From Spirochaetaceae bacterium (GTDB taxonomy: Bacteria > Spirochaetota > Spirochaetia > DSM-2461), in NCBI GenBank assembly GCA_965232165.1, contig CBDDOY010000002.1, positions 479,478 through 543,477 on the forward strand: a stretch of DNA of 64,000 nucleotides. Reading direction: 5' to 3'. The notes under the pieces are model-generated. The model did no database searches. It worked only from the letters and a program-made list of their open reading frames with translations, and was not told the origin of the DNA. Shown here piece after piece: positions 31,726-52,599 of this stretch (its first letter is position 1; the number at the start of each line of letters is the position of its first letter). The position numbers were made by a program, and so were the translations under genes.

Positions 31726-31739
31726 GATCTCGAAGATTG

Positions 31740-33612: not shown

Positions 33613-33627
33613 CGGTTCCTCCTGCTG

Positions 33628-34735: not shown

Positions 34736-35011
34736 GCCTCAAATCCTGATAAAGCACTAAAGGGCGCAGATATGTTTAATGAAAAGAGGGCTCCAAGAAA
34801 TATCTTCCGGCATTCTTGCCAGACTTCTTTGCGGGCTTTACTTGAAATATCACATTCCGTTTCGTCCGGAAAGTTTTCCTCTAAAAAAGTCTCCAGTTGA
34901 TTAGCTCTCCAGCCTATGGGCGCATATCTGACTATTCCAGGTTGTGCCGTCCATTTCCCTCTGGTACGGGAAGCGTATTATTGCTAAATACCCCGAACCT
35001 TGTGTTCACCT

Positions 35012-36393: not shown

Positions 36394-36395
36394 GG

Positions 36396-37885
36396 GGTAC
36401 GGGTTCAGGACATAGGTAACAGATTTCAAGGTTCAGAAGAGGCATCACCCCCCACTTCTTGTGGAGGTAAGTTTTTCTGATTGAAAGGCTTGAAACCATA
36501 GGTTTCTCTGTCGATCAATCCCAGCTCAATATAATGGGCACCTCTAAAAAACCTTATTTCGTTTTTGGCTTGATCTTTTTCCTCGCTGCTGCGTTGTCAA
36601 AATGCTCATGTAGCTTAAGCTAGCTCCGCTTTTGCCGCCTTGCATCAAGAAAAAATCTCTGCGCCAAATTCCAAAAACGGTTTTTTAGAGGTTGCCTAAT
36701 CAAAATAGATCGAGAAGAACGATTCATCAAGATCTGTGATTCCAATTGTTTCCCCCGCAAGAGCCGTACTGATATAAATACTGCTGCGGTCCAGTTTCAG
36801 ACAGCCCGAACGCGAGAGTTTCCGTACCCTGTAAAATAACGGATACCCGATTTCAGTCTTTTCAGATGTATACACTTTCTTTGACTTTTGGTACACATCT
36901 CCCGGACATTTCATACCCAGCTTCTCATGAGGTCTGACCGTGTTGAACTCATGCCGCCACAAATCAGGCGCTTTCTGAATTTCCAAAGCGTCTGATTTAA
37001 TCTGCTTCTGGATATCGGCTTTGATATCCCTGTGCATTCTTTCGTGTCCTCCATTCTGAGACGGCCTGCCCGGATCGATCCGCTCCAGCTGGATTCCAAG
37101 TGAAATCCGCCAGGCCGAAAGCCTTGTAAGACCTCTGACAGAGACGGCGCCGGCAAAGGGGCTTCCGTTATCGCTTTTGATGACTTTGGGCAGGCCGTAG
37201 AGCTTGAAAGTCCTCTCAAAAGCACTTTTAACGTCCTCTGTGCGGGTTGAGCCGAGTATTCCCGCCTCCAGAACGAAACAGCTGAACTCGTCACGGACAG
37301 TTAGCGGTTCACACCGTGAGCGATCTTTGGAGTACCGCCGGCCCTTGAAGTCAACAGTCCAGATATCGTTGGGAGCCAGCGCCTGATGAGGCGCATTGAT
37401 TCGTTCCACAGGGGTTGTTTTACGGTATTTTCTTTCCTGGACAAACCCGCTTTTTTTCAAGACTCTTTTGACACTGCTCAACGAAATGGCATCATTGACC
37501 CTGTTCAAATACAGGGCATGAATTTTCTTCGGTCCCCGCCTGGGATGATCTTTCTTCAACCGGATAATCCTGCAGACAGCCGCTTCTTCCAGCTGATTCG
37601 GACTTACCCTGGGCTGTCGGGATTGATCTTCCAGCCCTTCAAAGCCGTCCTCTGTGAACCGGTTCATCCACTTGTAACCAGTTTTCCGGCTAATTCTGTA
37701 CTCTAAGCATAAACTGCTGAAGTTCTGCTTTCCCTGCTGAACTCGAATAACGAATTCTTCTTTCAAATCCATGGTATTTCTCTCCTGCCACGGCATGTTT
37801 CCACCTCCAAGGTGTTACCATGCTCGGCTAAAAGTGTTACCTATGTCCTGAACCTCGAGTGTTACCTATGTCTTGACCCCTCCCT
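36396..37885 (-). mobile_element. IS481-family element; transposase ORF 36696-37796 truncated by MITE copy 4
   Basis: MPWQE start, ISRKTGYKW HTH, WTVDFKG, IKSDNGSPF, QNGGHERMHR. End motif TGTTACCTATGTCYTGA occurs twice at 37835-37877 and inverted at 36405-36421. Confidence 0.88.
36536..36696 (-). mobile_element. MITE copy 4 (161 bp) inserted in the IS481 transposase
   Basis: TIR GGGCACCTCTAA/TTAGAGGTTGCC with target duplication TAAT. Removing it restores the reading frame ...YFDYIELGLIDRE. Confidence 0.9.
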
Positions 37886-37898
37886 CAGAACCAAAAAT

Positions 37899-37918
37899 CC
37901 CCCCCCCCCCCCCCCCCC
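37899..37918 (+). repeat. Poly-C tract (C20)
   Basis: Homopolymer read directly, lying between the IS481 end and a lipoprotein pseudogene. Confidence 0.85.
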
Positions 37919-37954
37919 GCACAAGTCTAGCCGTTTACTCCTATCATCTCCTGA

Positions 37955-39150
37955 CAGCAGTATTCCTTCAGGCCGCAAAATCGGCGGCGCAAGCAGCATC
38001 TAACTCTTCTACTATCAGTGCCGATCATTGCATTCATCATTGCCTGCAGTGGCGGCAATGATTCTAACTCTTCCAGCGAAGCCCAGATAACCCAGTTGAG
38101 TGTCACCATTAACGGCAAAGATTATGATGTCAGCTTCGTAAACAATGCGGCAGCAGTGGCCATCCCCTCTAATCAAACAATCCCGCAGACGATAACGGTA
38201 AAGAGTGCGGCCCTCTCAGCCGGTGCATCCGGCCCTGACGGACTGGCGGCAGGGCAGCCGCTTACCCTGACTGACGGCAGTGTGAGGCTGACGATAACCG
38301 CCGGGGACGGCATCGCCACAACTGATTATACCATCACCGTCGCCCACCTAATCAGTGCGGCGGAACTGGCGCGTTCCGACACCACTGTGGACGGCAGCAA
38401 GCCGGATGCGTACCGTATTAATTATGGGGCCTTCAGCATCGAAACGACTGCGGCGGGTGCCGGGGATTACCGCCTGGCTGTCCGGGCCGCCTCGAAAACC
38501 GCACCAAATGCCGCGGAAATCCCGAAGCTTCTGCCGCCATCGTCAGAAACCTGTCATCCGCCCCTGTCAATGTGTTCATGAGCTTTCATATAGACACCGA
38601 TCTTTTTGATGCTGATACCGATTGGGCAGGCGATAGCTACAGGGGGGCGAAGGATAAAACTCTGAAAAAAGCTAAGGTGGATTCCGCTGTTCTCCAGGCT
38701 GATACCGAATACAAGCTCTATGCCGTATCGGGAGATCCTTCCATTTCCGATGTCCACACCCTGCTCACCTTCAGAACCGATCAGGGCACGGGTCCAGACT
38801 CAGGAACCTTTTACAATACACCAGTGGGATACACCTATACTGTAAAAGCTGGGGAATCTTTTTTGTTACGCACGTCTTTCAACGGTTCGCTAACTGGGCT
38901 TGTTAGGTATGAGAGAATTGATGGTTCGGACTTGGCTTTTGTCTCTCATAGCAGTGATAATGGAGTAGTCCCTAATGGTGGCAGAGGAAAAACTTTTTAC
39001 TCAAGTCAAGTGGAATCATCACCTACTAATTTGACTATGCTTTCAACGAACTTTGACATCGAACTGATTGGAGTCAATAATGCTGGAGAAGGGAATCTTC
39101 GGATAAGCTATAGAGGCATGAATTTTGACTTTAACTTCATTGTTCAGTGA
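37955..39150 (+). pseudogene. Surface lipoprotein with beta-sandwich domains (no clear start, frameshift at ~38530)
   Basis: In-frame signal peptide RPQNRRRKQHLTLLLSVPIIAFIIA-C lacks an upstream ATG. ORFs 38018-38581 and 38572-39150 join by a frameshift. Confidence 0.65.
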
Positions 39151-39475
39151 AAACAATGAGCCGTCAATTTTGTCGAGGCCGCAGAGTTCTCAGCAGGAGC
39201 AACTGGCATAGAGTTCGCTTTTTGGATTTGTTAATTAATGTGAAATTATTCTGCTTCAAAGAGTTGCTGATTTAGTCAACTCATAGGGAAGAATTATCGT
39301 CCGTTCCATCCTGAGTCCTTCCTGAAATTGGAACAGGAAAAAACTCTGCAGGCACAGCAGCGGAACGATACAATATGATAGGAGAGACTTCTGTACTGTT
39401 ACCCCCTCAAGAGCAAATTATTGATTTTGAGATTGAACTAGCAACTACTCTCAGTCCGATAAACGCGGCTGAAGC

Positions 39476-40345
39476 TCAGTTCTTGCGGGTAAGCCGCCGG
39501 ATCAGGCTGGAGGTATCCCAGCGGCCGCCGCCCATCTCCTGAATTTCACCGTAGTAGTCGTTCACAACTCGAGTGACGGGCAGTTCAGCACCGTTATTAG
39601 CGGCCTCAGCAAGGCATATCGAGAGGTCCTTGCGCATCCAGTCAACAGCGAATCCAAAGCAGAACTCGTCATTCAGCATGGTATTACCGCGATTCTCCAT
39701 CTGCCAGGAACCGGCAGCGCCCTTGGAGATAACATCGACGACCTTGTGTCCATCCAGTCCGGCACGCTGAGCGAAATCAAGGCCCTCTGAAAGGCCCTGT
39801 ACCAGTCCGGCAATACAAATCTGGTTGACCATCTTGGTCAGTTGTCCGGCACCGACACCGCCCATCAATTCGGCAGAGCATGCGTAACTCATAATCACAG
39901 GCCGCGCTTTTTCAAAGGCATCCGCCTCGCCGCCGATCATCACCGTCAGCACACCGTTTTCCGCACCGGCCTGCCCGCCCGAAACAGGCGCGTCCAGGAA
40001 GGGCACCTCGGACTGGGCGGCGATCTCTCGCTCCACATTGGCAGAAGCCGTGGTATGGTCTACTAGGACAGCGCCCTGTTTGCACCCGGCCAGCACACCG
40101 TCATCACCAAAAACCACCGACCGCAGGTCATCATCGTTACCGACACACATGAAAACAAAATCGGCTCCCTCGGCAGCTTCTCGCGGTGTTGCCGCGTTGT
40201 CTCCTTCATAATCCTGACACCACTGTTCGGCCTTTGCGGCAGTACGATTGTAGACCCGTGTTTTGAAACCAGCCCTGGAGAGATGGCCGGCCATCGGATA
40301 ACCCATGACCCCGAGTCCGATAAAGGCAGCCTGTTGTTTGCTCAT
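39476..40345 (-). CDS. NAD(P)-dependent beta-hydroxyacid dehydrogenase (GarR/MmsB family)
   Basis: FIGLGVMGYPMAGHL, DAPVSGGQAGA, GQLTKMVNQ, GFAVDWMRKDL. Confidence 0.92.
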   Translation of the reverse strand: MSKQQAAFIGLGVMGYPMAGHLSRAGFKTRVYNRTAAKAEQWCQDYEGDNAATPREAAEGADFVFMCVGNDDDLRSVVFGDDGVLAGCKQGAVLVDHTTASANVEREIAAQSEVPFLDAPVSGGQAGAENGVLTVMIGGEADAFEKARPVIMSYACSAELMGGVGAGQLTKMVNQICIAGLVQGLSEGLDFAQRAGLDGHKVVDVISKGAAGSWQMENRGNTMLNDEFCFGFAVDWMRKDLSICLAEAANNGAELPVTRVVNDYYGEIQEMGGGRWDTSSLIRRLTRKN

Positions 40346-40361
40346 ATTGATTCCTCATTAA

Positions 40362-40522
40362 GAGCACCGCTAAAAAACCCGTTTACTTCTTGACTCGACT
40401 TTTCCGCCGCTACTGCGTTGTCAAAATACTCACGTAGCTTAAGCTGCGCCTGAGCTTTTGCCGCCTTGTATCGACAAAAAATTTCTTCGTCAATTTCCTA
40501 AAGCTGTTTTTTAGAGGTGCCC
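40362..40522 (-). mobile_element. MITE copy 5 (161 bp)
   Basis: TIR GAGCACCGCTAA/TTAGAGGTGCCC with target duplication TTAA. Near reverse complement of copy 3. Confidence 0.9.
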
Positions 40523-40854
40523 TTAAATATTTTGCTGCGGCGATTCTACACGAGCCGACGGGCATTCGCCGCCATCCGTTTCAAAATAATGACAGAACTT
40601 CTTTTAGTCAACGTGCCTGCTGTTTTCAGGCCCCGTCAAATGCCTGGATGGCCCGCCGGGATCTGTTCATATCGCCAAACCCTGCTTAGGGGCTTAATAC
40701 AGTGTGAATGAGGAGGCCGGAAGCCAAACCGCTTCCTGGTTCTGGGAAGGCATATGAAATACGGGAAGATGCTCTTTGCTGTGCTGTACACAACACAATA
40801 CTGCACAGCAATAGCCGCGCAAGGGATTGAAACGGAAATGCCGCTGGCTGCCCC

Positions 40855-40943
40855 GGCGATTGGCAATGAGCCGGAGGACAGGCTGCCAGAGTAAGGCATT
40901 GCAGTGAAAAGCCCGACCCGAAGGGTTGCGCCCAGTTATTGAT
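40855..40943 (+). repeat. ~90-bp dispersed repeat, copy A
   Basis: GGCGATTGGCAATGAGCCGG...GGCTGCC.GAGT.AGGCATTG.AGTGAAAAGCCCGACCCGA matches the reverse complement of 56409-56497. Confidence 0.8.
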
Positions 40944-41007
40944 GACAATGTCTGTCAGACTCCTAGACCAATAATGAATAGTTGAGATATGCTTATAAAA
41001 TCTGTTT

Positions 41008-41172
41008 GCCGACAGTGTTCTGATTTCTAGAACCTAAGAGGGAATCCGGTGAGAATCCGGAACGATCCCGTCACTGTGATTTGGGCAAGGTTCACCTTAT
41101 TGCCACTGTTCCGAATGTGGAATGGGAAGGCGGTGGACGCATACCAATAAGTCAGGAGACCTGCTAATCGGC
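41008..41172 (+). ncRNA. Cobalamin (AdoCbl) riboswitch
   Basis: AAGAGGGAATCCGGTGAGAATCCGGAACGATCCCGTCACTGT, GCCACTG, GGGAAGGC and AAGTCAGGAGACCTGC (B12 box), upstream of cbiK-btu. Confidence 0.92.
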
Positions 41173-41264
41173 GTATCACAGATAACACTCTTCGAGGAGA
41201 GAGGTGTTATCCTGGATTTCTAATCCGAAGACCCATCTCCTCCAAAGAAAGAATTGGAGGCTCA

Positions 41265-42128
41265 ATGCGACACAGAATGCTCCCCCTTCTTCCCATAGTT
41301 CTCGGTGTTATCAATATGCCGGGCTGCACCCCGAAGAAGTCATCGGAACCCGTGATTCTTATAGCGGCATTCGGCAGCAGTTATGAGAGGGGCTTGGGAA
41401 ATCTCGCTGATTTCGACAGGGCTGTACGCTCGGCATTTCCCGGTAACGAAATCTATTGGGGTTTTTCGGCTTCCTTCATCGTAAAGAAGCTGCAAAACTT
41501 GGGTATTAAGACTCTCTTTGACTCTCAGGTGCCCTTGCTTGACATTGAGCAGGCTCTCTCCCATCTGCGTGCTCTGGGGAAATCAAAGGTTCTCGTCGTG
41601 AATTTTCTCATCATGAGAGGTGCAGAATACCGACAGATACTGAACACGCCGACTGCCGGTCTCAATGTCAAATATGTGCATCCCATCCTCTACTATGAAG
41701 AAAGTATTCAAAACACTGTGATGGCCTTGGAAGACTTGATAGCAGACGGCAAGGAGACGGCAACGATTTTCTGCGCGCACGGCAATGGCCGTGATATCCA
41801 ATATAACATCGAACTCGAATTATTAGACGAATATCTCAAGAGGAATTACCAAAACGCCTATTTGGTGAGTTTGGAAGGCACTCCCAGTTGGCCGCCGGTA
41901 CGGGATGCGGTTCTCGGCTCCGGCGTGAACCGTGTGCGTTTCGTTACCTTCATGCTGACTTCGGGTGATCATATGGCGAATGATGTCATGGGGGAAAGTC
42001 CTGAATCTTTCAGAAGGCAACTCGGTTTGTCCGCCGAATCCACCGACGGACTGGCCAGTATTCCCGAATTCCAACGGATGTTCATAGACCGGATGCATCA
42101 GGTGATGGCTCAGTTTGAGGGAATGTGA
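41265..42128 (+). CDS. cbiK: Sirohydrochlorin cobaltochelatase CbiK with a predicted lipoprotein signal
   Basis: LIAAFGSS, FCAHGN, SLEGTP, FMLTSGDHMANDVMG. N-terminal hydrophobic stretch ending MPGC. Confidence 0.85.
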   Translation: MRHRMLPLLPIVLGVINMPGCTPKKSSEPVILIAAFGSSYERGLGNLADFDRAVRSAFPGNEIYWGFSASFIVKKLQNLGIKTLFDSQVPLLDIEQALSHLRALGKSKVLVVNFLIMRGAEYRQILNTPTAGLNVKYVHPILYYEESIQNTVMALEDLIADGKETATIFCAHGNGRDIQYNIELELLDEYLKRNYQNAYLVSLEGTPSWPPVRDAVLGSGVNRVRFVTFMLTSGDHMANDVMGESPESFRRQLGLSAESTDGLASIPEFQRMFIDRMHQVMAQFEGM

Positions 42129-43180
42129 GAGCAGCGCTTCAGATAATTAGGCCGTCTCCTGATTTTCTCTTGGCGGCCTTGTTCTTACTCATTTCCGGCG
42201 GCATGATCATGGCCCTGGGCCGGCCGGAGTCCCGGGTTTCTCCAAGGGCTGTCATTCTTAACGATGTCGATGGGCGTGAGGTAGCGGTGGAACTGCCGGT
42301 CAATTCGCTGATTTCCTTGAATTCCGGATTGTCAGAGATTGTGGCAGCCCTGGATGCCGGTGGGCGCATCATAGGCCGGGACAGTTTCAGCAGCTTCCCC
42401 TCATTCCTGAATAAGATACCGGTGGTGGGCAGGAATTCATCGGGGGTGAGTATGGAAAGCATACTGGCCCTTCAGCCCGATCTCATATTGGCCGATGCGA
42501 TGTTCGATGAGAGTCATATTGAAATTCTTAGGAAACAGGGAATCCCTGTGATCATCGAATCCACAAGCAATCCGCTTCGGATTGCATTGATGGTAAGGAA
42601 TATGGGAAGAATTCTCCAGGTTGAAGAGAGGGCTCAGCACATTATCGCCGTTATAGATGAGATATTGGGGGAGGTTGATATGGCGGTGGAAGGACTCGGT
42701 CTCTCCGATGAAGAGAAGATGGCGGTGTTCTACGAAAACCGCAAACCGAACAAGAGCGCCTCCGCGTTAAGCGGGCACGATTTCTTCATCAGACATGCGG
42801 GAGGAATCAGCATCGCCGCAGATGAACCGGTAAGATTTCCCGAATTGAGCCCTGAGTACATCGCTGTGAGGAATCCCGATGTAATCATCCGCCGGGTCAG
42901 TGGTGACATCACCCGCAAAGCCATGGAATCCATGCGTCAGGACATCATGGCCAGGCCCAGCCTTCGGTCGGTGAATGCCGTCAAGAATCACCGGGTTCAT
43001 ATCGTGAAATCCGATCTTTTCATCTCCTTGAGATATCCGGTAGGCATCGCATACCTGGCCAAACTCTTTTATCCCGATAGTTTTGGACTGGACCCACAGA
43101 AGATGTACCGGCGCTATGTGACGATGCTCTACGGCGAAGAGGAGTGGGGGAGGATGGATGAGATATACGTCCATCCCTAA
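42125..43180 (+). CDS. btuF: Cobalamin/Fe-siderophore ABC transporter substrate-binding protein
   Basis: ESILALQPDLIL, EYIAVRNPDVII, AVKNHRV. Under B12 riboswitch control. Confidence 0.8.
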   Translation: MRAALQIIRPSPDFLLAALFLLISGGMIMALGRPESRVSPRAVILNDVDGREVAVELPVNSLISLNSGLSEIVAALDAGGRIIGRDSFSSFPSFLNKIPVVGRNSSGVSMESILALQPDLILADAMFDESHIEILRKQGIPVIIESTSNPLRIALMVRNMGRILQVEERAQHIIAVIDEILGEVDMAVEGLGLSDEEKMAVFYENRKPNKSASALSGHDFFIRHAGGISIAADEPVRFPELSPEYIAVRNPDVIIRRVSGDITRKAMESMRQDIMARPSLRSVNAVKNHRVHIVKSDLFISLRYPVGIAYLAKLFYPDSFGLDPQKMYRRYVTMLYGEEEWGRMDEIYVHP

Positions 43181-44222
43181 TACCGGCCTGATGCTCAGCA
43201 TCAGGAACCGTAGGCGCAAGAGACTCTTCGTACTTTTTGGTGCCTTCCTCGGCTTGATTCTTCTGGCGGTGCTATCGTCCGTTCTGGGTTCCGTCAAACT
43301 GAGTCCTGCGGAAATCTGGGTATTTATTAAGTCGGGTATATCAGGCCGGTATCCGAGTACTCTGCATTGGGGTAAATTCTCTGTCGTCTGGGATATCCGG
43401 CTGCCGCGCATTGTCATGGCCCTGTTTGCAGGAATGAGTTTGTCGCTGGGAGGAGCGGCCATGCAGGGCATTATGCGCAATCCCCTCGTGAGTCCCTACA
43501 CCTTGGGCATTTCCGCCGCTTCAGCCTTCGGGGCTTCTCTGGCCATTGTTCTGGGTTCTCCCGCATTCGTGATGCCGGCCGCCTTCATTTTTTCCCTGAT
43601 TTCGTTAATGCTTGTGCTGTTTTTCTGCCGTGGCGACCGGCTGCAGGCTGAAAGCCTGATTCTGACGGGAATCGCCGTTATGTTTATCTTCTCGGCGGGC
43701 ACCTCGCTTCTTCAATACCTCGCATCCCAGGATGAATTGGCGAGAATTGTGTTCTGGCTCATGGGTTCGTTAAGCTCTGCCACTTGGCCGAAGACCCTGG
43801 CGACGGCAGGCATCTCCATGATATCGTCTTTGCTGCTCTACACGTTTTCATGGCCGATGAATCTTCTCTCCTCGGGAGAGGAGAGCGCCATGAGCATGGG
43901 AGTCGATCCCCGAGTCCTGCGGATGAGGGTGATACTCATCGTCACGGGAATGACGGCGGTCATCGTAAGTCATACCGGCATCATCGGCTTCATCGGCCTG
44001 GCCGCACCCCATGTCGCCCGCATGCTGCTGGGCAGCGATCACAGGCTGCTGTTCCCGGCGGCGGCTGTTGCCGGGGCCTTTTTCCTGCTCGTTTCCGACA
44101 CGCTCGCCCGCTCCTTGCTGAGTCATACAGAGCTGCCCATCGGCATCATCACTTCCTTTCTCGGTGTTCCGTTTCTTATATCCATCCTGGCTAAACGCCG
44201 CAGGATGAGGAGTGTGCCGTGA
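43158..44222 (+). CDS. btuC: FecCD/BtuC-family ABC permease
   Basis: IRLPRIV, RNPLVSPYTLGISA, GIIGFIGLAAPHVAR, ELPIGIITSFLGVPF. Confidence 0.85.
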   Translation: MRYTSIPNTGLMLSIRNRRRKRLFVLFGAFLGLILLAVLSSVLGSVKLSPAEIWVFIKSGISGRYPSTLHWGKFSVVWDIRLPRIVMALFAGMSLSLGGAAMQGIMRNPLVSPYTLGISAASAFGASLAIVLGSPAFVMPAAFIFSLISLMLVLFFCRGDRLQAESLILTGIAVMFIFSAGTSLLQYLASQDELARIVFWLMGSLSSATWPKTLATAGISMISSLLLYTFSWPMNLLSSGEESAMSMGVDPRVLRMRVILIVTGMTAVIVSHTGIIGFIGLAAPHVARMLLGSDHRLLFPAAAVAGAFFLLVSDTLARSLLSHTELPIGIITSFLGVPFLISILAKRRRMRSVP

Positions 44223-44980
44223 ATATCAGGGTTCGAAATCTCAGCTTCGCCTACGGGAATTCACCCGTGCTCAATGACTTGAATTTCGATTGCGAATCGG
44301 GGCAGATCGTGGCTATTCTTGGTGAAAACGGCTCGGGTAAGTCAACATTGCTCGCCTTCCTAGCCGGACTCAAGGACTCCATTGCCGTCGAGTGGGACGG
44401 TCATGCCCCATCCTGCCAGTCCTTAGAGGAAAGGGCCTGTCTGCGCACCCTGGTGCCCCAGCATTCCGTCTTCGATGCGGCTATGCCGCTCTACGACTAC
44501 ATCCTCATGGGCCGAAAGCCCTGGTTCGGATGGAATGAGTCTTCCGGCGATCATCACATCGTTGCAGAGATGCTTCGACTGTTTGAGCTGACCGATCTGG
44601 CCTTTCGCCCTCTTTCGAATATCAGCGGAGGTGAGCGGAGGAAGGCCGTGCTGGCCCGGGCCTTCGCCCAGGACACTCCATTGCTTCTTCTGGATGAACC
44701 GCTGAACAATCTCGACTTGAGATTTCAGCTCAAGTTTCTCAACCTGCTTAAACGGCGCGCTGAAGACCCCGGCGTGCTCATTATCATCGTTTTGCACGAC
44801 ATCAATGCCGCCCTCAACTGCTGTGATTCGGCTGTGCTTTTAAGGGAAGGCCAGATTATTGCCCATGGCCCCATCGAAGAATCCATAACTGCAGAAACGG
44901 TGGAATCCATGTTGGGAGTAAAAGGTTCCTTCTATGAAATAGATGGAAGGCGGCAAATGGCGATGCCTGCAACAGTCTGA
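44219..44980 (+). CDS. btuD: ABC transporter ATP-binding protein
   Basis: GENGSGKST, ISGGERRK, LLLDEP, LHDIN. Confidence 0.88.
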   Translation: MNIRVRNLSFAYGNSPVLNDLNFDCESGQIVAILGENGSGKSTLLAFLAGLKDSIAVEWDGHAPSCQSLEERACLRTLVPQHSVFDAAMPLYDYILMGRKPWFGWNESSGDHHIVAEMLRLFELTDLAFRPLSNISGGERRKAVLARAFAQDTPLLLLDEPLNNLDLRFQLKFLNLLKRRAEDPGVLIIIVLHDINAALNCCDSAVLLREGQIIAHGPIEESITAETVESMLGVKGSFYEIDGRRQMAMPATV

Positions 44981-44990
44981 TGTCATGAGA

Positions 44991-45500
44991 CTATTTCTCG
45001 ATGCCCATCCGAGCCGGCACACCCGCCTGGAAATAATGTTTAACGACCTGCATTTCGGTTACCAAATCGGCCCGCTGTATCAGGCTCTGCGGCGCACCCC
45101 GACCGGTGCAGATCACTTCCATGGACTGGGGCCGCAAATCCAGCAGGCCGTGGAATTCATTTTCATCCACCAGGGCGCAGCTAAGCGCAACATTGATTTC
45201 ATCCAGTATCAGGATATCGGAACCGGCATGGACGAATTGCCGCCGCATCTCGCCCAAACCCCGCCGGGACGAAGCAATGTCTGCTTGGGAAACCGGTCTT
45301 CCAAACAAGACACCACTGCCGAATTGACTCACCTTCACACCGATTTTCCTCAGCATCGCCGTTTCCGAACTTGGTTTGTTCTTGATGAATTGGATGAGAT
45401 GAACCCGAAGATTGACGCCTCTGGCCCTGAGCGCCAGTCCGAAGGCCGCCGTGGATTTACCCTTGCCGTCACCGGTGTACACTTGGAGATATCCTAGCAT
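44991..45500 (-). CDS. cobO: Cob(I)yrinic acid a,c-diamide adenosyltransferase (CobO/BtuR), antisense to its operon
   Basis: MLGYLQVYTGDGKGKSTAAFG, IQFIK, LILDEIN, CTGRGAP, ADLVTEM..VKHYFQAG.PARMGIE. Confidence 0.93.
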   Translation of the reverse strand: MLGYLQVYTGDGKGKSTAAFGLALRARGVNLRVHLIQFIKNKPSSETAMLRKIGVKVSQFGSGVLFGRPVSQADIASSRRGLGEMRRQFVHAGSDILILDEINVALSCALVDENEFHGLLDLRPQSMEVICTGRGAPQSLIQRADLVTEMQVVKHYFQAGVPARMGIEK

Positions 45501-46473
45501 GGAAGACATACTAGCACATATTGCGTTTCATGTATTGGCGCTGACCTCTGCGGGAGCACTGGACTGTATGCTGGGCGATGCACCGACTCAATTCCATCCG
45601 GTGGGATGGATGGGGAAGGGTATCGCGTTTTTATGGTCAAAAAGACCTCATGGCGCCCGTATGCGTCTCTTCCTGTGGGGCCTCTTCATTGTCATCTTCG
45701 GCCTTGCCGTGACACTCGTCTTAACCTGGCCGCTTCAATGGCTGCTTAAGTCCGGCAGAGAAATTTCGGCTGCCGCCGCGGTCTTCATCATGGCCATCTT
45801 ATTCAAACCCAGTTTTTCGATAAGAGGATTGATTCGGGGGGCACGGCAGGTGGAAAAGGCCATCAATACGGGAGACATTGAATCGGCCCGTCTGCTCACG
45901 GAGACGAATTTGGTAAGCCGATCTCTCGATGGGGCGGATTCGTCATACATTGCCTCTGCGGCAATTGAATCTCTGAGCGAGAATTTTACCGACAGCATTG
46001 CAGGCCCGTCGCTGTTCTTCCTGTTAGGCGGACTCCCCGGCGCATGGGCTTACCGCTTCGTCAACACGGCAGATGCGATGTTAGGCTATCATGGCGGACA
46101 GCACGAATGGGGAGGAAAGGCCGCCGCGAGACTCGACGATGTCTTCAATCTCTTCCCCGCCAGGATTTCAGGCATCATACTCATTGCGGCCGCCTATCTG
46201 CTCGGCTATGATGGCAGGGGAGCCCTGCGAATGATGAAACATGATTCGATGAAGTGTCTCAGCCCCAATTCCGGCTGGACCATGGCCGCGGCGGCCGGGG
46301 CTTTGGGGGTCAGGCTGGAGAAGCCCGGCTTCTATGTCCTCAATGACATGGGTCTAAGGCCCTCAGCAAACGATCTCCGAAGGGGCATCGTCCTTATTCT
46401 CGTCTCGATTGGCCTTTTGATGTTTCTGATAACGATACCGGTCATGACCGCCTGCATAATACTGAAGCCCTAG
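45499..46473 (+). CDS. cbiB: Adenosylcobinamide-phosphate synthase
   Basis: HPVGWMG, IESLSENFTD, YRFVNTADAMLGY, AARLDDVFN, SPNSGW.MAAAAGALGVRL. Confidence 0.93.
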   Translation: MEDILAHIAFHVLALTSAGALDCMLGDAPTQFHPVGWMGKGIAFLWSKRPHGARMRLFLWGLFIVIFGLAVTLVLTWPLQWLLKSGREISAAAAVFIMAILFKPSFSIRGLIRGARQVEKAINTGDIESARLLTETNLVSRSLDGADSSYIASAAIESLSENFTDSIAGPSLFFLLGGLPGAWAYRFVNTADAMLGYHGGQHEWGGKAAARLDDVFNLFPARISGIILIAAAYLLGYDGRGALRMMKHDSMKCLSPNSGWTMAAAAGALGVRLEKPGFYVLNDMGLRPSANDLRRGIVLILVSIGLLMFLITIPVMTACIILKP

Positions 46474-46474
46474 G

Positions 46475-47017
46475 ATGATTCTAATACTCGGCGGTATAAA
46501 AAGTGGAAAAAGCGCCTTCGCTGCCGCAATGGCCGAGAAGAGGGAGACTCTGGGGCCGATTGTTTACCTGGCTACGGCGCAGGCTGGCGACGAGGAAATG
46601 GCCGAACGCATTGATGCGCACCGAGCCAGAAGACCTGTTCACTGGCAGACCAGGGAGGAATCAACGGACCCGTCCAGAGTCTTCATTGACAACCTCGGCG
46701 CCAAGACCGTCATTCTTGATTGTGTGACGAATTGGCTCACCAATTTGATTTCCCATCTGAGCGATGAACCCAGTCGCAGCGAAGTGATCCGAATCGGCCG
46801 GAAAGCGGTGACCGGGCTGATAGCGGCCGTTGGGAAGTGGGAAAATCACGGCGGCAAGGCCCTGCTCGTCTCAAATCAGGTTGAGACAGGGCTCATCTCG
46901 CCCTGGCCCCTAGGCCGGTATTTTCAAGATCTGGCCGGTCTGACTCATCAGCAGATTGCCGAGGCGGCGGAGGCCGTATATCTGATTAATGCGGGTTTAC
47001 CGCTGAAAATAAAATAA
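46475..47017 (+). CDS. cobU: Bifunctional adenosylcobinamide kinase/phosphate guanylyltransferase
   Basis: LGGIKSGKS, DEEMAERIDAHRARRP, DCVTNWLTN, VSNQVETG. Confidence 0.93.
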   Translation: MILILGGIKSGKSAFAAAMAEKRETLGPIVYLATAQAGDEEMAERIDAHRARRPVHWQTREESTDPSRVFIDNLGAKTVILDCVTNWLTNLISHLSDEPSRSEVIRIGRKAVTGLIAAVGKWENHGGKALLVSNQVETGLISPWPLGRYFQDLAGLTHQQIAEAAEAVYLINAGLPLKIK

Positions 47018-47028
47018 GGACCGAGAAT

Positions 47029-48072
47029 ATGCGGTATCGATTAATAGATGAAATGGCTTTGAGCATAGCCCCGCTTGATGAAGAGGCAAAGCGGAAAGCG
47101 GTCTTGAGAATGAATTCCTTGCTAAAACCGCCTGGCTCCCTGGGCCGCCTGGAAGAACTCGGCATAATGCTGGCCGGCGTTCAGGGAAGGGAAAAACCCG
47201 TGGTGAATTCCAAACTCTCCCTTATTTATGCCGCCGATCACGGGGTGACGGCCGAATCTGTTTCGACGGTGCCGTCTGCCGTGACGGGTGTTATGGTGAG
47301 GGCCTTCTGCTCTGGAAAGGCCGGTATCAATGTACTCGCACGGCAGGCCGGAGCGCGTATCCGGGTGATTGATATCGGCATTGCCAACGACTATGCCATA
47401 CCAGACGAGGTCATACTTCGCCGTATCCGCCGAGGTACCGGCAATATGCGCATTGAGGAAAGCATGACCAGGGAAGAAGCGATACTGGCGATTTCCACTG
47501 GTATAGAAACAGCGGCAGGCGAAGTCCGCGCTGCCGGAGCACAGGTGGTTGGGGTAGGGGAGATGGGCATAGGTAATACAACCTCGGCGGCAGCCCTAAC
47601 GGCCGTGTTTACAGGCAGGGATCCAGCCGAAGTTACCGGCACTGGAACAGGGCTTGATGATGCCGGTTTAGAACGGAAGATACGAATCATCAGGGAAGCC
47701 TGCCTGCTTCATCGGCCGGATCCCCAGGATCCGATTGGCGTACTTTCAAAAATCGGCGGACTGGAAATTGCCGCCATGGCCGGAGCGATGGTGGGAGCCG
47801 CATCGGAAGGCGCTCTAGTATTGATCGATGGATTTATCAGCGGCACGGCTGCCCTTATCGCCATACAAATGGCTCCGGCTCTGCGCGACAGGGTGGTCTT
47901 GAGCCATTTATCGTTAGAACCCGGGCATGGAGTGATCGCCCGAAGACTGGGACTCATACCCCTTCTGGATTTGGGGCTTAGGCTGGGGGAGGGAACCGGC
48001 GCCGCGCTTGCCATGAATCTTGTCGAATCCTCGGCGGCCTTACTCAGTGAAATGGGCACGTATGAATTGTGA
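47029..48072 (+). CDS. cobT: Nicotinate-nucleotide--dimethylbenzimidazole phosphoribosyltransferase
   Basis: KPPGSLGRLEE, AADHGV, GEMGIGNTT, GGLEIA, LRLGEGTGA. Confidence 0.95.
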   Translation: MRYRLIDEMALSIAPLDEEAKRKAVLRMNSLLKPPGSLGRLEELGIMLAGVQGREKPVVNSKLSLIYAADHGVTAESVSTVPSAVTGVMVRAFCSGKAGINVLARQAGARIRVIDIGIANDYAIPDEVILRRIRRGTGNMRIEESMTREEAILAISTGIETAAGEVRAAGAQVVGVGEMGIGNTTSAAALTAVFTGRDPAEVTGTGTGLDDAGLERKIRIIREACLLHRPDPQDPIGVLSKIGGLEIAAMAGAMVGAASEGALVLIDGFISGTAALIAIQMAPALRDRVVLSHLSLEPGHGVIARRLGLIPLLDLGLRLGEGTGAALAMNLVESSAALLSEMGTYEL

Positions 48073-48384
48073 ATTATCTGCCTGAGCGGTACACGCAGAC
48101 AGGTGATTTCATCTCTGAGTGCCGGCCGGGCGGTGAATCCACAAGTCAAATTGGCCGCTTTCCGAGAAATCGGCAGACCAGCCCAGTGCTCCTGCTCACC
48201 GGCCTTAGGCGAGGATTTAAGCAGTAGGAGATCTAAGCCAGATGCTAGCCTGTCGGGGAATTTGCCTTATGGCCCCAATTTCCGGTTTATCCGCAGATGA
48301 ACGCAGTGCGGAAATTTCTTGAACCACGAATGGCCATGAATGGATACGAATTGTTGTTTTGACCGCAGATAAGACACGGATTGT

Positions 48385-51105
48385 TTTGCACGATGTCTTC
48401 ATAAAAATTTATGAGCATTGAACTTTCGTGTCTTTCGCTGTTGAAATCCTTCCGTGTATTCCGTGTGTTCTGTGGTTAAATCCGCAAGATGAACGCCGAT
48501 GGAATGCTTTGGACGGCTTCATAGAAGACTCATGAGTATCAGCTTTTCGTGTTTTTCGTGCTTTTCGCGGTTGAAAACCTTCCGTGTATTCCGTGTGTTC
48601 TGTGGTTAAATCCGCAAGATGAACGCCGATGGAATGCTTTGGACGGCTTCATAGAAGACTCATGAGTATCAGCTTTTCGTGTTTTTCGTGCTTTTCGCGG
48701 TTGAAAACCTTCCGTGTGTTTCGTGGTCAAATCCGCAGATGGCACCGATGGATGCCGATGGAGTACTTGGGACGGCTTCATAGAAGACTCGCGTGTATCT
48801 GCTTTTCGTGTTTTTCGTGCTTTTCGCGGTTGAAAACCTTCCGTGTGTTCCGTGTGTTCTGTGGTTAAATCCGCAAGATGAACGCCGATGGAATGTTTTG
48901 GACGGCTTCATAGAAGACTCATGAGTATCAGCTTTTCGTGTTTTTCGTGCTTTTCGCGGTTGAAAACCTTCCGTGTGTTCTGTGGTTGAATCCGCCGATT
49001 GCGCCGATGGACGCAGATGGAGTACTTTGGACGGCTTCATAGAAGACTCATGAGTATCAGCTTTTCGTGTTTTTCGTGCTTTCCGTGGTTGAAAACCTTC
49101 CGTGTATTCCGTGTGTTCCGTGGTTAAACCCGCAAGATGAACGCCGATGGAATGCTTTGGACGGCTTCATAGAAGACTCATGAGTATCAGCTTTTCGTGT
49201 TTTTCGTGCTTTCCGTGGTTGAAAACCTTCCGTGTGTTCTGTGGTTAAATCCGCAAGATGAACGCCGATGGAATGCTTTGGACGGCTTCATAGAAGACTC
49301 ATGAGTATCAGCTTTTCGTGTTTTTCGTGCTTTTCGCGGTTGAAAACCTTCCGTGTATTCCGTGTGTTCTGTGGTTAAATCCGCAAGATGAACGCCGATG
49401 GAATGTTTTGGACGGCTTCATAGAAGACTCATGAGTATCAGCTTTTCGTGTTTTTCGTGGTTGAAAACCTTCCGTGTGTTCTGTGGTTGAATCCGCCGAT
49501 TGCGCCGATGTTCTGTGGTTAAATCCGCAAGATGAACGCCGATGGAAACGGCTTCATAGAAGATTCGCGTGTATCAGCTTTTCGTGTTTTTCGTGGTTGA
49601 AAACCTTCCGTGTGTTCCGTGGTTGAACGATTGCGCCGATGGACGCAGATGGAGTACTTTGGACGGCTTCATAGATGACTCATGAGTATCAGCTTTTCGT
49701 GTTTTTCGTGCTTTTCGTGGTTGAAAACCTTCCGTGTATTCCGTGTGTTCCGTGGTTAAATCCGCAAGATGAACGCCGATGGAATGTTTTGGACGGCTTC
49801 ATAGAAGATTCGCGTGTATCAGCATTTCGTGTTTTTCGTGCCTTTCGTGGTTAAATCCGCAGATGATGCCGATGGACGCCGATGGAGTACTTGGAACGGC
49901 TTCATAGAAGACTCATGAGTATCAGCTTTTCGTGTTTTTCGTGGTTGAAAACCTTCCGTGTATTCCGTGTGTTCCGTGGTTAAACCCGCAAGATGAACGC
50001 CGATGGAATGCTTTGGACGGCTTCATAGAAGACTCATGAGTATCAGCTTTTCGTGTTTTTCGTGTTTTTCGTGCTTTTCGTGGTTGAAAACCTTCCGTGT
50101 ATTCCGTGTGTTCTGTGGTTGAATCCGCAAGATGAACGCCGATGGAATGTTTTGGACGGCTTCATAGAAGACTCATGAATATCAGCTTTTCGTGTTTTTC
50201 GTGCTTTTCGCGGTTGAAAACCTTCCGTGTGTTCTGTGGTTAAATCCGCAAGATGAACGCCGATGGAATGCTTTGGACGGCTTCATAGAAGACTCGCGTG
50301 TATCAGCTTTTCGTGTTTTTCGTGCTTTTCGTGGTTGAAAACCTTCCGTGTATTCCGTGTGTTCTGTGGTTAAATCCGCAAGATGAACGCCGATGGAATG
50401 TTTTGGACGGCTTCATAGAAGACTCGCGTGTATCAGCTTTTCGTGTTTTTCGTGCTTTTCGCGGTTGAAAACCTTCCGTGTATTCCGTGTGTTCTGTGGT
50501 TAAATCCGCAAGATGAACGCCGATGGAATGTTTTGGACGGCTTCATAGAAGACTCGCGTGTATCAGCTTTTCGTGTTTTTCGTGCTTTTCGCGGTTGAAA
50601 ACCTTCCGTGTATTCCGTGTGTTCTGTGGTTAAATCCGCAAGATGAACGCCGATGGACGCAGATGGAGTACTTTGGACGGCTTCATAGAAGACTCATGAG
50701 TATCAGCTTTTCGTGTTTTTCGTGTTTTTCGCGGTTGAAAACCTTCCGTGTATTCCGTGTGTTCTGTGGTTAAATCCGCAAGATGAACGCCGATGGAATG
50801 TTTTGGACGGCTTCATAGAAGACTCATGAATATCAGCTTTTCGTGTTTTTCGTGCTTTCCGTGGTTGAAAACCTTCCGTGTGTTCTGTGGTTAAATCCGC
50901 AAGATGAACGCCGATGGAATGTTTTGGACGGCTTCATAGAAGACTCATGAGTATCAGCTTTTCGTGTTTTTCGTGCTTTTCGTGGTTGAAAACCTTCCGT
51001 GTGTTCCGTGTGTTCTGTGGTTAAATCCGCAAGATGAACGCCGATGGAATGTTTTGGACGGCTTCATAGAAGACTCATGAATATCAGCTTTTCGTGTTTT
51101 TCGCG
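48385..51105. repeat. Non-coding tandem array, 21 units of ~130 bp plus a degenerate first unit
   Basis: Anchor GGACGGCTTCATAGAAG recurs at 48511, 48641, 48770, 48900, 49029, 49159, 49280, 49410, ~49547, 49661, 49791, ~49894, 50015, 50154, 50275, 50405, 50535, 50675, 50805, 50926, 51056. Confidence 0.95.
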
Positions 51106-51406
51106 AAGGAAGGCACACAGAAGTAACAGGCCCATTTACCAGGCCGTGCTGGGCCTATGGCTGCCCAGAATTTGGGATACAGGAAAAGACACAGCTTTCT
51201 CCGTCCACCGTGAATTCCTGCTATGCGATCCGAAGCCTCTGAGATTCATCAAGGGGGGCATCGGTCAGAAGCGAAACCGCTTTTGCTCCTACACAGAATA
51301 TATCCGGATCATGAATCTGGAAACCGAATTGCCTCGTTAACCAAATATGGGTTCTATTGCATGGTCCTGAATCGATGGGTTATTATACTCCTATTGACGG
51401 ATTAAC

Positions 51407-51480
51407 GGGTGAATAGCTCAGTTGGTTAGAGCGTCGGCTTTACACGCCGGAAGTCCTGGGTTCGAGTCCCAGTTCGCCCA
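51407..51480 (+). tRNA. tRNA-Val (anticodon TAC)
   Basis: Acceptor GGGTGAA/TTCGCCC, D-arm TAGCTCAGTTGGTTAGAGC, anticodon loop CTTACAC, T-loop GGTTCGAGTCC. CCA is not encoded. Confidence 0.93.
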
Positions 51481-51513
51481 AAACTCACTCGGTGCCATAT
51501 TAAGAGGTTCCCA

Positions 51514-52599
51514 ATGGCAGAACATAAAACAATTGCGTTTACCGGAGGAGGAACGGCTGGCCATGTGTTTCCAGCGTTTCCCGTGATAGAGCGGCTGAAG
51601 AACGCCGGATACAGAGTGCTTTGGATGGGATCGGAAAATGGCATGGAACAGGAATTGGTGATGCAGGCCGGAATTCCCTATTTCGCTATACCCGCCGGTA
51701 AATTCAGGCGCTATTGGTCATGGAAGAACTTCACCGATGTTTTTCGGATTGTCTACGGGATATTCTGTTCACTGAGGATTCTTAGGAATAACAGGCCGAA
51801 CCTGCTCTTCTCCAAAGGCGGGTTCGTCTCCGTTGCTCCTGTGATAGCGGCATTTTTACTCCGCATACCAACCCTCACTCACGAATCAGATGTTAATCCG
51901 GGTTTAGCAACCAAATTGAATCTCAAGCTTAGGGCATGTCCTCTAGTCAGTTATGATACAACCTTGAATCATCTGAATGTTTCTTTGAGGTCCAAGGCTC
52001 ACGTTGTAGGCAATCCGGTCCGGGATGCCGTCTTCCAAGGTGATCGGGCGGAAGGCAGGAGAATTGCAGGGCTTAGTCCTGATGATAAGCGGCCATTACT
52101 CCTTGTCCTAGGGGGGTCTCAGGGTGCAAAAGAAATCAACGACCTTATATATGCGGCCCTGGATGAAATTCTCCCCTTGACTTCCGTTGTTCACCAGTGC
52201 GGCCTAGGCAATTCAGGGATACCCAGCCGCTACGGCTATACAAGCCGTGAATTCTTTCGTGAAGAGATGCCCCATCTCCTTGCTGCCGCCGATCTTGCGG
52301 TTTCCAGGTCGGGGGCAGGGGCACTGTGGGAGTTGGCGGCAAGTTCCACACCAGCAATCTTCGTACCGCTTAATACGGCCACACGCGGTGATCAAATCGT
52401 CAATGCCCTCCTAGCCGAGGAAATCGGCTTCTCCGTCACATTGAAAGATGGTTCCAATGCCAGGGAATTGCTGCATATTGTCAGGGGGCTTCTTTCCGAT
52501 ACGATGACCTTAACTAAGATGAGAAACGCCGCATCTAAGCTGCCGGTAAGAACCGCAGCCGATAAGATTACAGAGATCATCGAGAGCATGATAGCATGA
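51514..52599 (+). CDS. murG: UDP-GlcNAc--lipid I N-acetylglucosamine transferase
   Basis: GGGTAGHVFP, FSKGGFVS, HESD, GNPVR, VLGGSQGA, SRSGAG, DQIVNA. Confidence 0.95.
   Translation: MAEHKTIAFTGGGTAGHVFPAFPVIERLKNAGYRVLWMGSENGMEQELVMQAGIPYFAIPAGKFRRYWSWKNFTDVFRIVYGIFCSLRILRNNRPNLLFSKGGFVSVAPVIAAFLLRIPTLTHESDVNPGLATKLNLKLRACPLVSYDTTLNHLNVSLRSKAHVVGNPVRDAVFQGDRAEGRRIAGLSPDDKRPLLLVLGGSQGAKEINDLIYAALDEILPLTSVVHQCGLGNSGIPSRYGYTSREFFREEMPHLLAAADLAVSRSGAGALWELAASSTPAIFVPLNTATRGDQIVNALLAEEIGFSVTLKDGSNARELLHIVRGLLSDTMTLTKMRNAASKLPVRTAADKITEIIESMIA

Follow-up and report, generated by a model that had tools for sequence, protein, structure and literature searches.

Opposite-strand genes among co-directional bacterial genes

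The noncontiguous operon may be regarded, by analogy, as the closest known kind for the cobalamin (B12) locus described here; its described example is menE-menC-MW1733-ytkD-MW1731 of Staphylococcus aureus (Saenz-Lahoya et al., 2019), as outlined in a review (PMC7154746). As far as that outline goes, the two loci share an opposite-strand gene placed among co-directional related genes with no separating terminator, and in both of them the opposite mRNA would be complementary to an internal stretch of the read-through transcript. They differ in that co-transcription across the internal gene, cobO, is putative in the present locus, in that cobO acts in the pathway of the operon genes themselves, and in the extreme spacing (10 nt tail-to-tail and a 2-nt overlap of start codons) and the riboswitch control of the upstream part. 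A second related kind is the excludon or riboswitch-controlled antisense RNA, represented by AspocR of Listeria; in the known riboswitch-antisense cases the riboswitch is found immediately at the target's 3′-end, following the pattern of no B12, no B12-dependent pathway (PMC7154746, PMC9943018). If read-through occurs, the present locus would be similar in that a B12 riboswitch decides on antisense RNA to a B12-related gene, but in this case the riboswitch heads the operon at a distance of 4 kb, and repression of cobO at low B12 would have no obvious benefit. Head-to-head overlaps of genes account for ~1% of well-characterised overlaps, and all of the long ones are misannotations (PMC2478687). 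The cobO/cbiB pair resembles the known pairs in that two real opposite-strand starts, backed by the N-termini of homologues, overlap, and it differs in the shortness of the overlap (2 nt) and in its conservation across three lineages.

The cobalamin gene cluster

The window, i.e., the whole stretch of 64,000 nucleotides that was analysed, contains the gene order riboswitch-cbiK-btuFCD-[cobO]-cbiB-cobU-cobT, and every ORF from 41265 to 48072 is a B12 gene. A cobalamin riboswitch aptamer (Rfam RF00174, 113.6 bits; 40996..41183, plus strand) is located upstream of cbiK and is the only riboswitch of the cluster; in the relatives a riboswitch is likewise found before cbiK and none before cbiB. The plus-strand ORFs assigned with Pfam and NCBIfam to cbiK (41265-42128), a BtuF-like binding protein (42125-43180), btuC/FecCD (43158-44222) and a btuD-like ABC ATPase (44219-44980, TGA stop at 44978-44980) overlap or abut one another, and cbiB (45499-46473), cobU (46475-47017) and cobT (47029-48072), assigned in the same way and on the same strand, follow beyond cobO. 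Direct reading and the ORF listing both bear out the claim of an earlier note on this DNA that cobO (44991..45500, minus strand; TAG stop at 44993-44991) is the sole minus-strand member of the otherwise co-directional cluster. It is separated from btuD by a 10-nt spacer between convergent stops (44981..44990), and its intact 169-aa product is a CobA/CobO/BtuR ATP:corrinoid adenosyltransferase that matches Pfam PF02572 with 181.8 bits (cut-off 25.7) over profile positions 3-171 of 172 and scores just under the NCBIfam cut-offs for the subfamily NF004637 (168.9 versus 185) and the equivalog TIGR00708 (143.2 versus 167.75). The P-loop GDGKGKST is conserved, with GKGKST invariant among the homologues. 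Exact-sequence look-ups of the window CobO (as 172 aa and as 169 aa) and of CobU matched no record.

Reality, age and origin of the orientation

The antisense orientation of cobO is real DNA. Both of its junctions are spanned by Logan contigs from four runs of two samples (0 differences, unique depth 10–15x) and are present in an independent contig of a metagenome-assembled genome (MAG) of the same species (L169, NAUD01000059.1; 99.6% nucleotide identity). The contigs of the four runs share identical ends, at 40914 and ~48404-48477, which were considered as transcript boundaries and rejected on the depth profiles, which are those of DNA runs; the ends are shared because of high-copy repeats. 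The MAG that represents the species bears a label assigning it to a spirochete symbiont of Stewartia floridana, a lucinid clam.

Close relatives were obtained by a protein search with contig look-ups, and those obtained by scans of genome and metagenome contigs, all with ≤51% identity among the matches listed, were used as outgroup and background only. The order cbiK-btuFCD> <cobO cbiB-cobU-cobT> recurs in two circular genomes of 3.5 Mb with 92–93% identity (L081/L082), in L083 (68–70%) and in L085 (66%), which together with the window species make up four “embedded” lineages, while five “terminal” lineages (L084, L086, L088, L170 and L171; 61–67%) have a convergent btuD> <cobO pair that cbiB does not adjoin. 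In the CobO tree, the embedded loci make up one sub-clade and the terminal loci its sister. Since all the relatives with at least 61% protein identity that were found share the orientation, it is older than the divergence of these sub-clades; the comparison of gene order in relatives that the earlier note had proposed as a check thus yielded the shared antisense arrangement that it had listed as evidence against its own reading, a single-gene inversion of cobO. Among the distant matches listed, cobO is co-directional with btuD, cbiB, cobU or cobT in 30-odd loci, including btuD→cobO in seven loci and cobO→cbiB in L048, and no outgroup has the exact order btuD-cobO-cbiB. Because distant lineages are almost always co-directional in these matches, the antisense state appears to be derived and an ancient, fixed inversion of cobO is plausible; the gene order points to a rearrangement, possibly an inversion, in an ancestor of the spirochaete-like clade as the probable origin of the layout. 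The earlier option of a fixed rearrangement is therefore retained as regards an old, fixed layout and dropped as regards a fresh event.

Purifying selection acts on cobO. Its dN/dS is 0.145 (dS 0.27) in comparison with L081 and 0.20 in comparison with L083, and the ORF is intact in every lineage, indicating that cobO is not silenced, contrary to the earlier proposal that an inversion would silence it.

Overlapping starts and a putative promoter in the first codons of cbiB

The start codons of cobO (45500-45498, minus strand) and cbiB (45499-45501, plus strand) lie within one CATG (45498..45501) and overlap head-to-head by 2 nt, an arrangement that is shared by L169, L081/L082 and L083 and is absent in L085. 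The minus-strand ORF (44991-45509) contains in-frame ATGs at 45509-45507 and at 45500-45498, and the first of these, 9 nt upstream, was rejected as the start because the homologues all start at the ATG of the CATG, with the N-terminus M-x-(G/A)-Y-L-(Q/H)-V-Y-T-G in 9/9 lineages. The GTG of V7, which has an AGGA 9 nt upstream and is the choice of the gene caller, was also rejected: six lineages encode V7 by GTA or GTT, and conservation extends over residues 2–6. A start of cbiB at a downstream TTG was ruled out by the length of the N-terminus, with 20 residues before the conserved LD motif as against 21 in the non-overlapping cbiB of L085. Judging by the homologue N-termini, both overlapping start codons are true starts. 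Gene callers dodge the overlap by shortening one partner, and the database entries are a 163-aa cobO and a 207-aa cbiB.

Shine-Dalgarno-like motifs precede cbiK, btuF, btuC, btuD, cbiB and cobT, and none was found before cobO. The motif of cbiB, GGAGA (45485..45489, plus strand), is located 9 nt before its ATG and is the antisense of cobO codons Leu5-Gln6, so that the Shine-Dalgarno sequence of cbiB would be written in codons 5–6 of cobO; the same position reads GGAGG in L083 and GAAGG in L081. In relatives without an adjoining cbiB, the Leu-Gln codons are CTG, TTA, CTA or CTT followed by CAG, resulting in no Shine-Dalgarno sequence.

Leaderless mRNAs, which are common in Actinobacteria, Deinococcus and archaea, have a TANNNT −10 element a few nucleotides upstream of the start codon. 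A TAnnnT element ends 7 nt before the cobO ATG in 4/4 embedded lineages (TAGTAT, TAGTAT, TATACT and TACTAT), preceded by TGn in three of them, and the background frequency of TAnnnT is 0.0095 per position. In the window, the putative extended −10 (TGcTAGTAT; 45508..45516, minus strand) falls in codons 4–6 of cbiB. The element lies inside cbiB in 3/4 embedded lineages, where the encoded residues differ (DIL, NIL and ASI), and in non-coding DNA in L085; its conservation could in part reflect protein constraint on cbiB. A scan for sigma-70-type consensus promoters gave no site at a threshold of 9 of 12, and no good −35 was found for cobO. Among the terminal lineages, L084 and L170 have AATAAT 6 nt before the cobO ATG, L086 has an ordinary cobO leader with a Shine-Dalgarno sequence and L171 has a Shine-Dalgarno-like GGAAG; from these leaders, leaderless expression of cobO is predicted not to be universal in the clade.

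The conserved TAnnnT and the absence of a Shine-Dalgarno motif suggest that cobO has a small promoter to itself, an extended −10 lying among the initial cbiB codons, and that transcription from it would give an mRNA that is leaderless or has a 1-nt leader. For such an mRNA, no promoter region upstream and no Shine-Dalgarno sequence would be required, which would allow cobO and cbiB to abut without a spacer. The likeness to known leaderless mRNAs consists of the TAnnnT 6–7 nt before the ATG and the lack of a Shine-Dalgarno sequence; the cobO case differs in that the putative promoter lies inside the coding sequence of another gene and the 5′-end is a predicted one. The earlier remark that cobO has no ribosome-binding site agrees with the lack of a Shine-Dalgarno-like motif. 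A dedicated promoter inside cbiB, shared with relatives, had been named beforehand as an observation that would speak against the inversion, and a conserved promoter-like −10 does occur inside the start of cbiB. On this sequence evidence, cobO is likely to be a working adenosyltransferase gene whose place on the opposite strand is old and fixed, with its own −10 promoter and a leaderless mRNA.

Possible transcription across cobO

A riboswitch-controlled mRNA may run from cbiK through btuD, continue antisense across cobO, and enter cbiB-cobU-cobT. Such a noncontiguous operon is compatible with the leaderless reading given above, from which it differs only as to the transcription of cbiB-cobU-cobT and whether the layout is regulatory. 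The layout itself, with an opposite-strand cobO among co-directional B12 genes, is conserved in four lineages, and each locus has a single riboswitch, which precedes cbiK in every case and cbiB in none, in keeping with one transcription unit. Neither a terminator nor a stable hairpin was found in or around the 10-nt btuD/cobO gap (the terminator scan gave no site, and folding of the junction gave z-scores of +0.40 and −0.36, i.e., no unusually stable hairpin), and the promoter scan detected no promoter-like site for cbiB inside cobO. The RNA data consist of four short, unstranded contigs from one sediment metatranscriptome, one of which covers the riboswitch region (41004-41261) and another of which crosses the btuD/cobO junction (44840-45030); however, this 191-nt contig, being unstranded, could equally represent a 3′-extension of the cobO mRNA or DNA carry-over. 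Other observations also count against read-through: a perfect TTGACA, found by eye on the cbiB strand in the 140-nt cobO/cbiB spacer of L085, hints at a separate promoter for cbiB; convergence of btuD and cobO is maintained in the five terminal lineages, which have no downstream operon genes there; and the regulatory logic is awkward, as low B12 would induce an antisense RNA to an enzyme needed for AdoCbl. Transcription across cobO is thus a possibility to be taken seriously, although the balance tips slightly against it. If it occurs, the cobO mRNA and the polycistronic mRNA would be fully complementary over 510 nt.

The locus is otherwise ordinary, with one speculative extra, an open operon-strand ORF across cobO (44985..45497, plus strand; 170 codons in the codon-aligned antisense frame). 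Its ATG is located 4 nt after the TGA of btuD and its TAG ends 1 nt before the ATG of cbiB. The antisense frame is open across all of cobO in 4/4 embedded lineages, where 3.2, 3.6, 1.2 and 4.4 stops are expected from neighbour codon usage, and is closed by 2–5 stops in 5/5 terminal lineages. The position of the in-frame ATG after the cobO stop is conserved and its flanking bases are not. As a candidate bridging ORF kept open by selection, it may allow ribosomes leaving btuD to re-start at the ATG 4 nt after, or overlapping (ATGA), the btuD stop, and to translate across the 510-nt antisense stretch up to a stop 1 nt before the cbiB ATG; such translation would couple cbiB to the genes before it, shield the transcript from Rho-type polarity, and represent a new device holding a noncontiguous operon together. 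Alternatively, it is a shadow ORF. The antisense frame is also open in 9–33% of unrelated cobO genes at similar GC, a 254-codon antisense frame of cbiG in the window is fully open by chance, and the ORF of L083 runs 573 nt into cbiB, out of frame. The embedded lineages form one sub-clade with higher GC3, and the open-frame test was post hoc and of modest significance. Maintenance of this ORF by selection is regarded as unlikely.

The CATG tetramers and the proposed inversion

The sequence facts put forward in the earlier note were all reproduced: a second CATG is located at 44984-44987, 3 nt past the cobO stop, the two ATGs overlap in the first one, and flipping 44984-45501 in silico yields TGA-TGTC-ATG(cobO, 169 aa)...TAG-TCTC-ATG(cbiB), a collinear order with all ORFs intact, whose junction sequences are CAGTCTGATGTCATGCTAGGATATCTCC and GAGAAATAGTCTCATGGAAGACATAC, also written as caacagtctgatgtcatgctaggatatctccaagtg and gcatcgagaaatagtctcatggaagacatactagc. 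The symmetric 4-nt spacers are automatic once both tetramers are present. CATG occurs 297 times in the 64 kb (~1 per 215 nt), and the chance of a CATG inside the 10-nt btuD/cobO spacer is ~3–5%.

An exact inversion of cobO alone at this microhomology could have taken place in the ancestor of the clade, starting from a collinear btuD-cobO-cbiB, with the tetramers as relics. The collinear pairs btuD→cobO and cobO→cbiB in the distant matches listed and the ORF-preserving flip fit this scenario, as does the CATG 3 nt after the cobO stop in the window, L083 and L085, where the adjacent bases differ. However, L081/L082, the closest relative (92% identity), has CATA in place of the downstream tetramer, and L085, whose cbiB begins ~140 nt away, has TATG in place of the upstream one; a search for inverted repeats in 44700-45800 found none longer than 4 nt at the junctions, the CATG tetramers only. 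Furthermore, neutral relics should have decayed at dS >1, so that the conserved bases are more likely functional, for instance as an operon-strand ATG/ATGA next to the end of btuD; in the sister sub-clade, btuD and cobO are convergent and the genes upstream are unrelated ones, and the outgroup order that the scenario starts from is missing among the matches listed. An exact inversion between the two CATGs, the central claim of the earlier note, is accordingly unsupported for the present DNA and improbable for the clade ancestor.

A recent inversion or a reversible DNA switch that turns cobO off and on in a strain or population is more improbable still. Site-specific invertible switches are known from fimS, hin/hix and shufflons, which the cobO segment resembles in its inverted identical ends and in that a flip would change expression; it differs from them in having repeats of 4 nt (recombinase-site repeats being taken as roughly 9–30 bp), no dedicated recombinase and one orientation in all assemblies and lineages. 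All that speaks for such a switch is that both ends are palindromic tetramers and that the flip leaves the ORFs intact, whereas at contig level the collinear orientation is absent from the four run assemblies, the MAG, L081, L082, L083 and L085, purifying selection acts on cobO in its present orientation, and the cluster contains no recombinase. The nearest transposase-like ORFs are found at 35984-37796, ~7–9 kb upstream, in agreement with the earlier remark that no invertase is nearby. An assembly or library chimera, e.g., by ligation at NlaIII sites, has only the coincidence of CATG with the NlaIII site to suggest it and is effectively excluded, the arrangement being found again in each of the four run assemblies, in a MAG that is older and independent, and in circular long-read genomes of relatives.

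Implications

The locus reveals no new switch and no new mechanism of rearrangement. For annotation, it means that gene callers that forbid head-to-head overlaps truncate both partners. The sequence around the two starts would have a dual use, with a putative promoter in the codons of cbiB and a Shine-Dalgarno sequence in the codons of cobO. In this uncultured lineage of marine spirochaetes, the cluster is a candidate noncontiguous operon with a riboswitch at its head, both compact and conserved, and it suggests that a seemingly mis-oriented gene without room for a promoter or a ribosome-binding site can be a stable, functional design.

Arrangement and Reality of the Antisense cobO Gene

Family searches identified a gene run encoding CbiK, a BtuF-like binding protein, BtuC/FecCD, an ABC ATPase, CobA/CobO/BtuR, CbiB, CobU, and CobT, with a cobalamin riboswitch (40996–41183) upstream of cbiK; these searches and the ORF listing both place cobO (PF02572, 181.8 bits) as the sole minus-strand gene. 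A reading of the sequence at 44800–45700 together with the ORF listing located the btuD stop TGA at 44978–44980 (plus strand), the cobO stop TAG at 44993–44991 (minus), in-frame ATGs of the cobO ORF at 45509–45507 and 45500–45498 (minus), the cbiB ATG at 45499–45501 (plus), and CATG tetramers at 44984–44987 and 45498–45501, in agreement with every coordinate of an earlier note on this DNA. The layout is conserved and compact, with a 10-nt tail-to-tail btuD/cobO gap and a 2-nt head-to-head overlap of the cobO and cbiB starts. As that note described, flipping 44984–45501 in silico yields a collinear operon with every ORF intact, from which an exact inversion between the two CATGs, silencing cobO, had been proposed. 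CATG occurs once per 215 nt in the window, the chance of one in the 10-nt btuD/cobO spacer is approximately 3–5%, and the symmetry of the spacers is automatic once a CATG falls there.

An assembly or library chimera is ruled out, as Logan contigs from four runs (two samples) cover 44500–46000 as single pieces with 0 differences, and an independent metagenome-assembled contig labelled “spirochete symbiont of Stewartia floridana” (NAUD01000059.1, locus L169; 99.6% identical over cobO) contains both cobO junctions, including the two CATGs.

Gene Order in Relatives

A protein search recovered a small CobO clade at 56–92% identity, all other matches lying at or below about 55%, and loci were read by contig look-up for lineages with CobO identities of 61–93%. 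The order cbiK-btuF-btuC-btuD, opposite-strand cobO, cbiB-cobU-cobT recurs in the relatives L081 and L082 (two circular 3.5-Mb genomes; 92–93%), L083 (68–70%), and L085 (a circular 2.5-Mb genome; 66%), which with the window and L169 form four “embedded” lineages. In five “terminal” lineages (L084, L086, L088, L170, and L171; 61–67%), btuD and cobO are convergent and the other flank of cobO carries unrelated genes. Loci that extend sufficiently upstream each carry a single cobalamin riboswitch, before cbiK. In the CobO tree, the embedded and the terminal loci make up separate, sister sub-clades; the convergent btuD/cobO pair therefore predates their split. Among approximately 160 distant loci listed (≤51% identity), cobO is almost always co-directional with its B12 neighbors where these are recognizable, and the distant loci among the matches listed include at least seven with a same-strand btuD directly upstream of cobO and at least one with cbiB directly downstream. 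This distribution indicates that the antisense state is derived, old, and fixed in this clade.

The downstream tetramer is CATA in the closest relative (L081/L082), the upstream one is TATG in L085, where cobO and cbiB lie about 140 nt apart, and no inverted repeats were found at the cobO junctions beyond the tetramers themselves; an exact CATG–CATG inversion or a recombinase site is thus unsupported. Of the readings in the earlier note, only a fixed rearrangement survives, as an ancient event; an exact, recent, reversible, or silencing inversion, or an artefact, is not supported. Every clade relative read shares the antisense order, an outcome that the earlier note had named as refuting. In each of the four embedded lineages, a CAT past the cobO stop (ATG on the operon strand) keeps the same in-frame position, and its neighboring bases vary. 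In five lineages (the window, L081, L083, L085, and L084), an operon-strand ATGA (TCAT on the cobO strand) also recurs amid non-conserved bases, either overlapping the btuD stop or directly behind it (window 44978–44990 and equivalents); it may be a start codon for re-initiation or what is left of btuD stop codons that have shifted.

Repeats and Decay around the Cluster

Very high-copy repeats surround the cluster (34992–38311, 40304–40967, and 48272–51591), with Logan word depths of 100–3000x vs. an even 10–15x in unique sequence, a profile indicating that the four runs are DNA libraries. These repeats break the four assemblies at identical places, explaining the common contig ends at 40914 and about 48404–48477, and have many alternative joints (e.g., 36697 to 40505 and 40523 to 51413). 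Together with transposase-like ORFs at 35984–36499 and 36696–37796, they make the genome or its community appear rich in mobile elements. One joint, from 40525 to 44194 (DNA runs X1 and X3; 9.9x and 13.6x, genome-level depth; 23 nt on the shorter side), links a high-copy repeat end to sequence matching 44194 onward, near the btuC/btuD boundary, and is probably a repeat copy beside a paralogous stretch elsewhere. Relative to L081, where the riboswitch and cbiK directly follow cbiH at about 630 nt (12219–12847), about 9 kb is inserted in the window (31725–40995), containing kbl/tdh-like genes (minus strand), IS elements, and small ORFs. In L085 (8640–9950), the B12 transporter is decayed, with btuF and most of btuC gone and a frameshift in btuD near 8905, beside intact cbiK, cobO, cbiB, cobU, and cobT; this may mark a reduced genome that is losing corrinoid uptake, or reflect long-read indel errors.

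Start, Overlap, and Expression of cobO

The cobO ORF is unbroken and its P-loop invariant in all lineages, and dN/dS is 0.145 against L081 (dS 0.27) and 0.20 against L083, indicating selection on the CobO protein for the whole time in its present orientation and contradicting its supposed silencing. By sequence comparison, its true start is the ATG within CATG, from which the N-terminus reads M-x-(G/A)-Y-L-(Q/H)-V-Y-T-G in 9/9 lineages; the gene callers' GTG (V7) was rejected, this codon being GTA or GTT in six lineages. The cbiB Shine-Dalgarno sequence GGAGA (45485–45489) lies antisense to cobO codons Leu5-Gln6, with counterparts GGAGG in L083 and GAAGG in L081, and codons 5–6 form no such motif in lineages without an adjoining cbiB. 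CbiB has 20 residues before its conserved LD motif vs. 21 in the non-overlapping L085 gene, a match that supports the overlapping ATG as its start. Divergent overlaps are rare, at about 1% of well-characterized overlaps (PMC2478687), and gene callers evade this one by shortening one partner (163-aa cobO or 207-aa cbiB). Automatic calls at L081 7010–8000 and in the database proteins P0001, P0002, and P0006 start cobO from GTG (163 aa) or over-extend it (212 aa), and cut cbiB to 207 or 191 aa despite open full frames; database entries of this clade are thus mis-started.

All four embedded lineages have a TAnnnT hexamer whose end lies exactly 7 nt upstream of the cobO ATG (TGcTAGTAT in the window and L169, TAGTAT in L081, TGaTATACT in L083, and TGcTACTAT in L085), against a window background of 0.0095 per position. 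Being located in non-coding DNA in L085, the element is more than a by-product of cbiB codons, and the overlying CbiB residues differ between the other lineages (DIL, NIL, and ASI). AATAAT lies 6 nt upstream of the ATG in L084 and L170. As noted earlier, cobO lacks a Shine-Dalgarno-like motif, whereas cbiK, btuF, btuC, btuD, cbiB, and cobT carry one. A TAnnnT element just upstream of a start codon without a Shine-Dalgarno sequence is the architecture of leaderless mRNAs; the cobO mRNA is probably leaderless, with a predicted 5′-end. A second leaderless-type candidate in the window is a 505-codon ORF (21939–23456, minus) without a Shine-Dalgarno sequence, before whose ATG a perfect TATAAT ends by 7 nt.

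Possible Transcription across cobO

Read-through from the riboswitch promoter across cobO into cbiB-cobU-cobT, forming a noncontiguous operon, is a reading to which we give slightly less than an even chance: there is a single riboswitch, no terminator-like site or stable hairpin was found at the btuD/cobO junction, and a scan found no promoter-like site within cobO, but TTGACA in the L085 cobO/cbiB spacer, read by eye, hints at a separate cbiB promoter. Run X5, a marine-sediment metatranscriptome and the one source of RNA evidence, contains short, unstranded, 100% identical contigs at 41004–41261, 44840–45030 (spanning the btuD/cobO junction), and part of cobT, indicating that the organism is also free-living in sediment. 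The first, 258 nt over the riboswitch leader, ends 3 nt before the cbiK ATG (41265), consistent with an abundant leader RNA that undergoes termination.

In each of the four embedded lineages, the antisense frame codon-aligned with cobO is open over the entire gene; in the window, this frame forms an ORF (44985–45497, plus) whose ATG lies 4 nt past the btuD TGA and whose TAG lies 1 nt before the cbiB ATG, and in L083 and L085 the in-frame ATG overlaps the btuD stop as ATGA. Neighbor codon usage predicts 3.2, 3.6, 1.2, and 4.4 antisense stops in these lineages, against actual counts of 0 or 1, where the one stop is the terminal one, and the five terminal lineages have 2–5, at or above expectation where computed. 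This pattern would suit an ORF translated as a bridge that shields a read-through transcript, an improbable reading on this modest, post hoc evidence: the embedded lineages make up a single sub-clade, with elevated GC3, the frame is open in 9–33% of unrelated cobO genes of similar GC and in ~5% of 168-codon windows among genes of this window, and in L083 the ORF continues for 573 nt inside cbiB in a different frame. A 254-codon ORF (30203–30967, minus), fully antisense and codon-aligned to cbiG (30215–30970, plus), shows that no special context is needed here for a shadow ORF to span a whole gene, and is a control that guards against reading too much into the cobO antisense ORF.

The closest known kind for the locus is the noncontiguous operon described in Staphylococcus aureus (PMC7154746); if read-through occurs, the cobO mRNA would, as there, be fully complementary to the operon mRNA.
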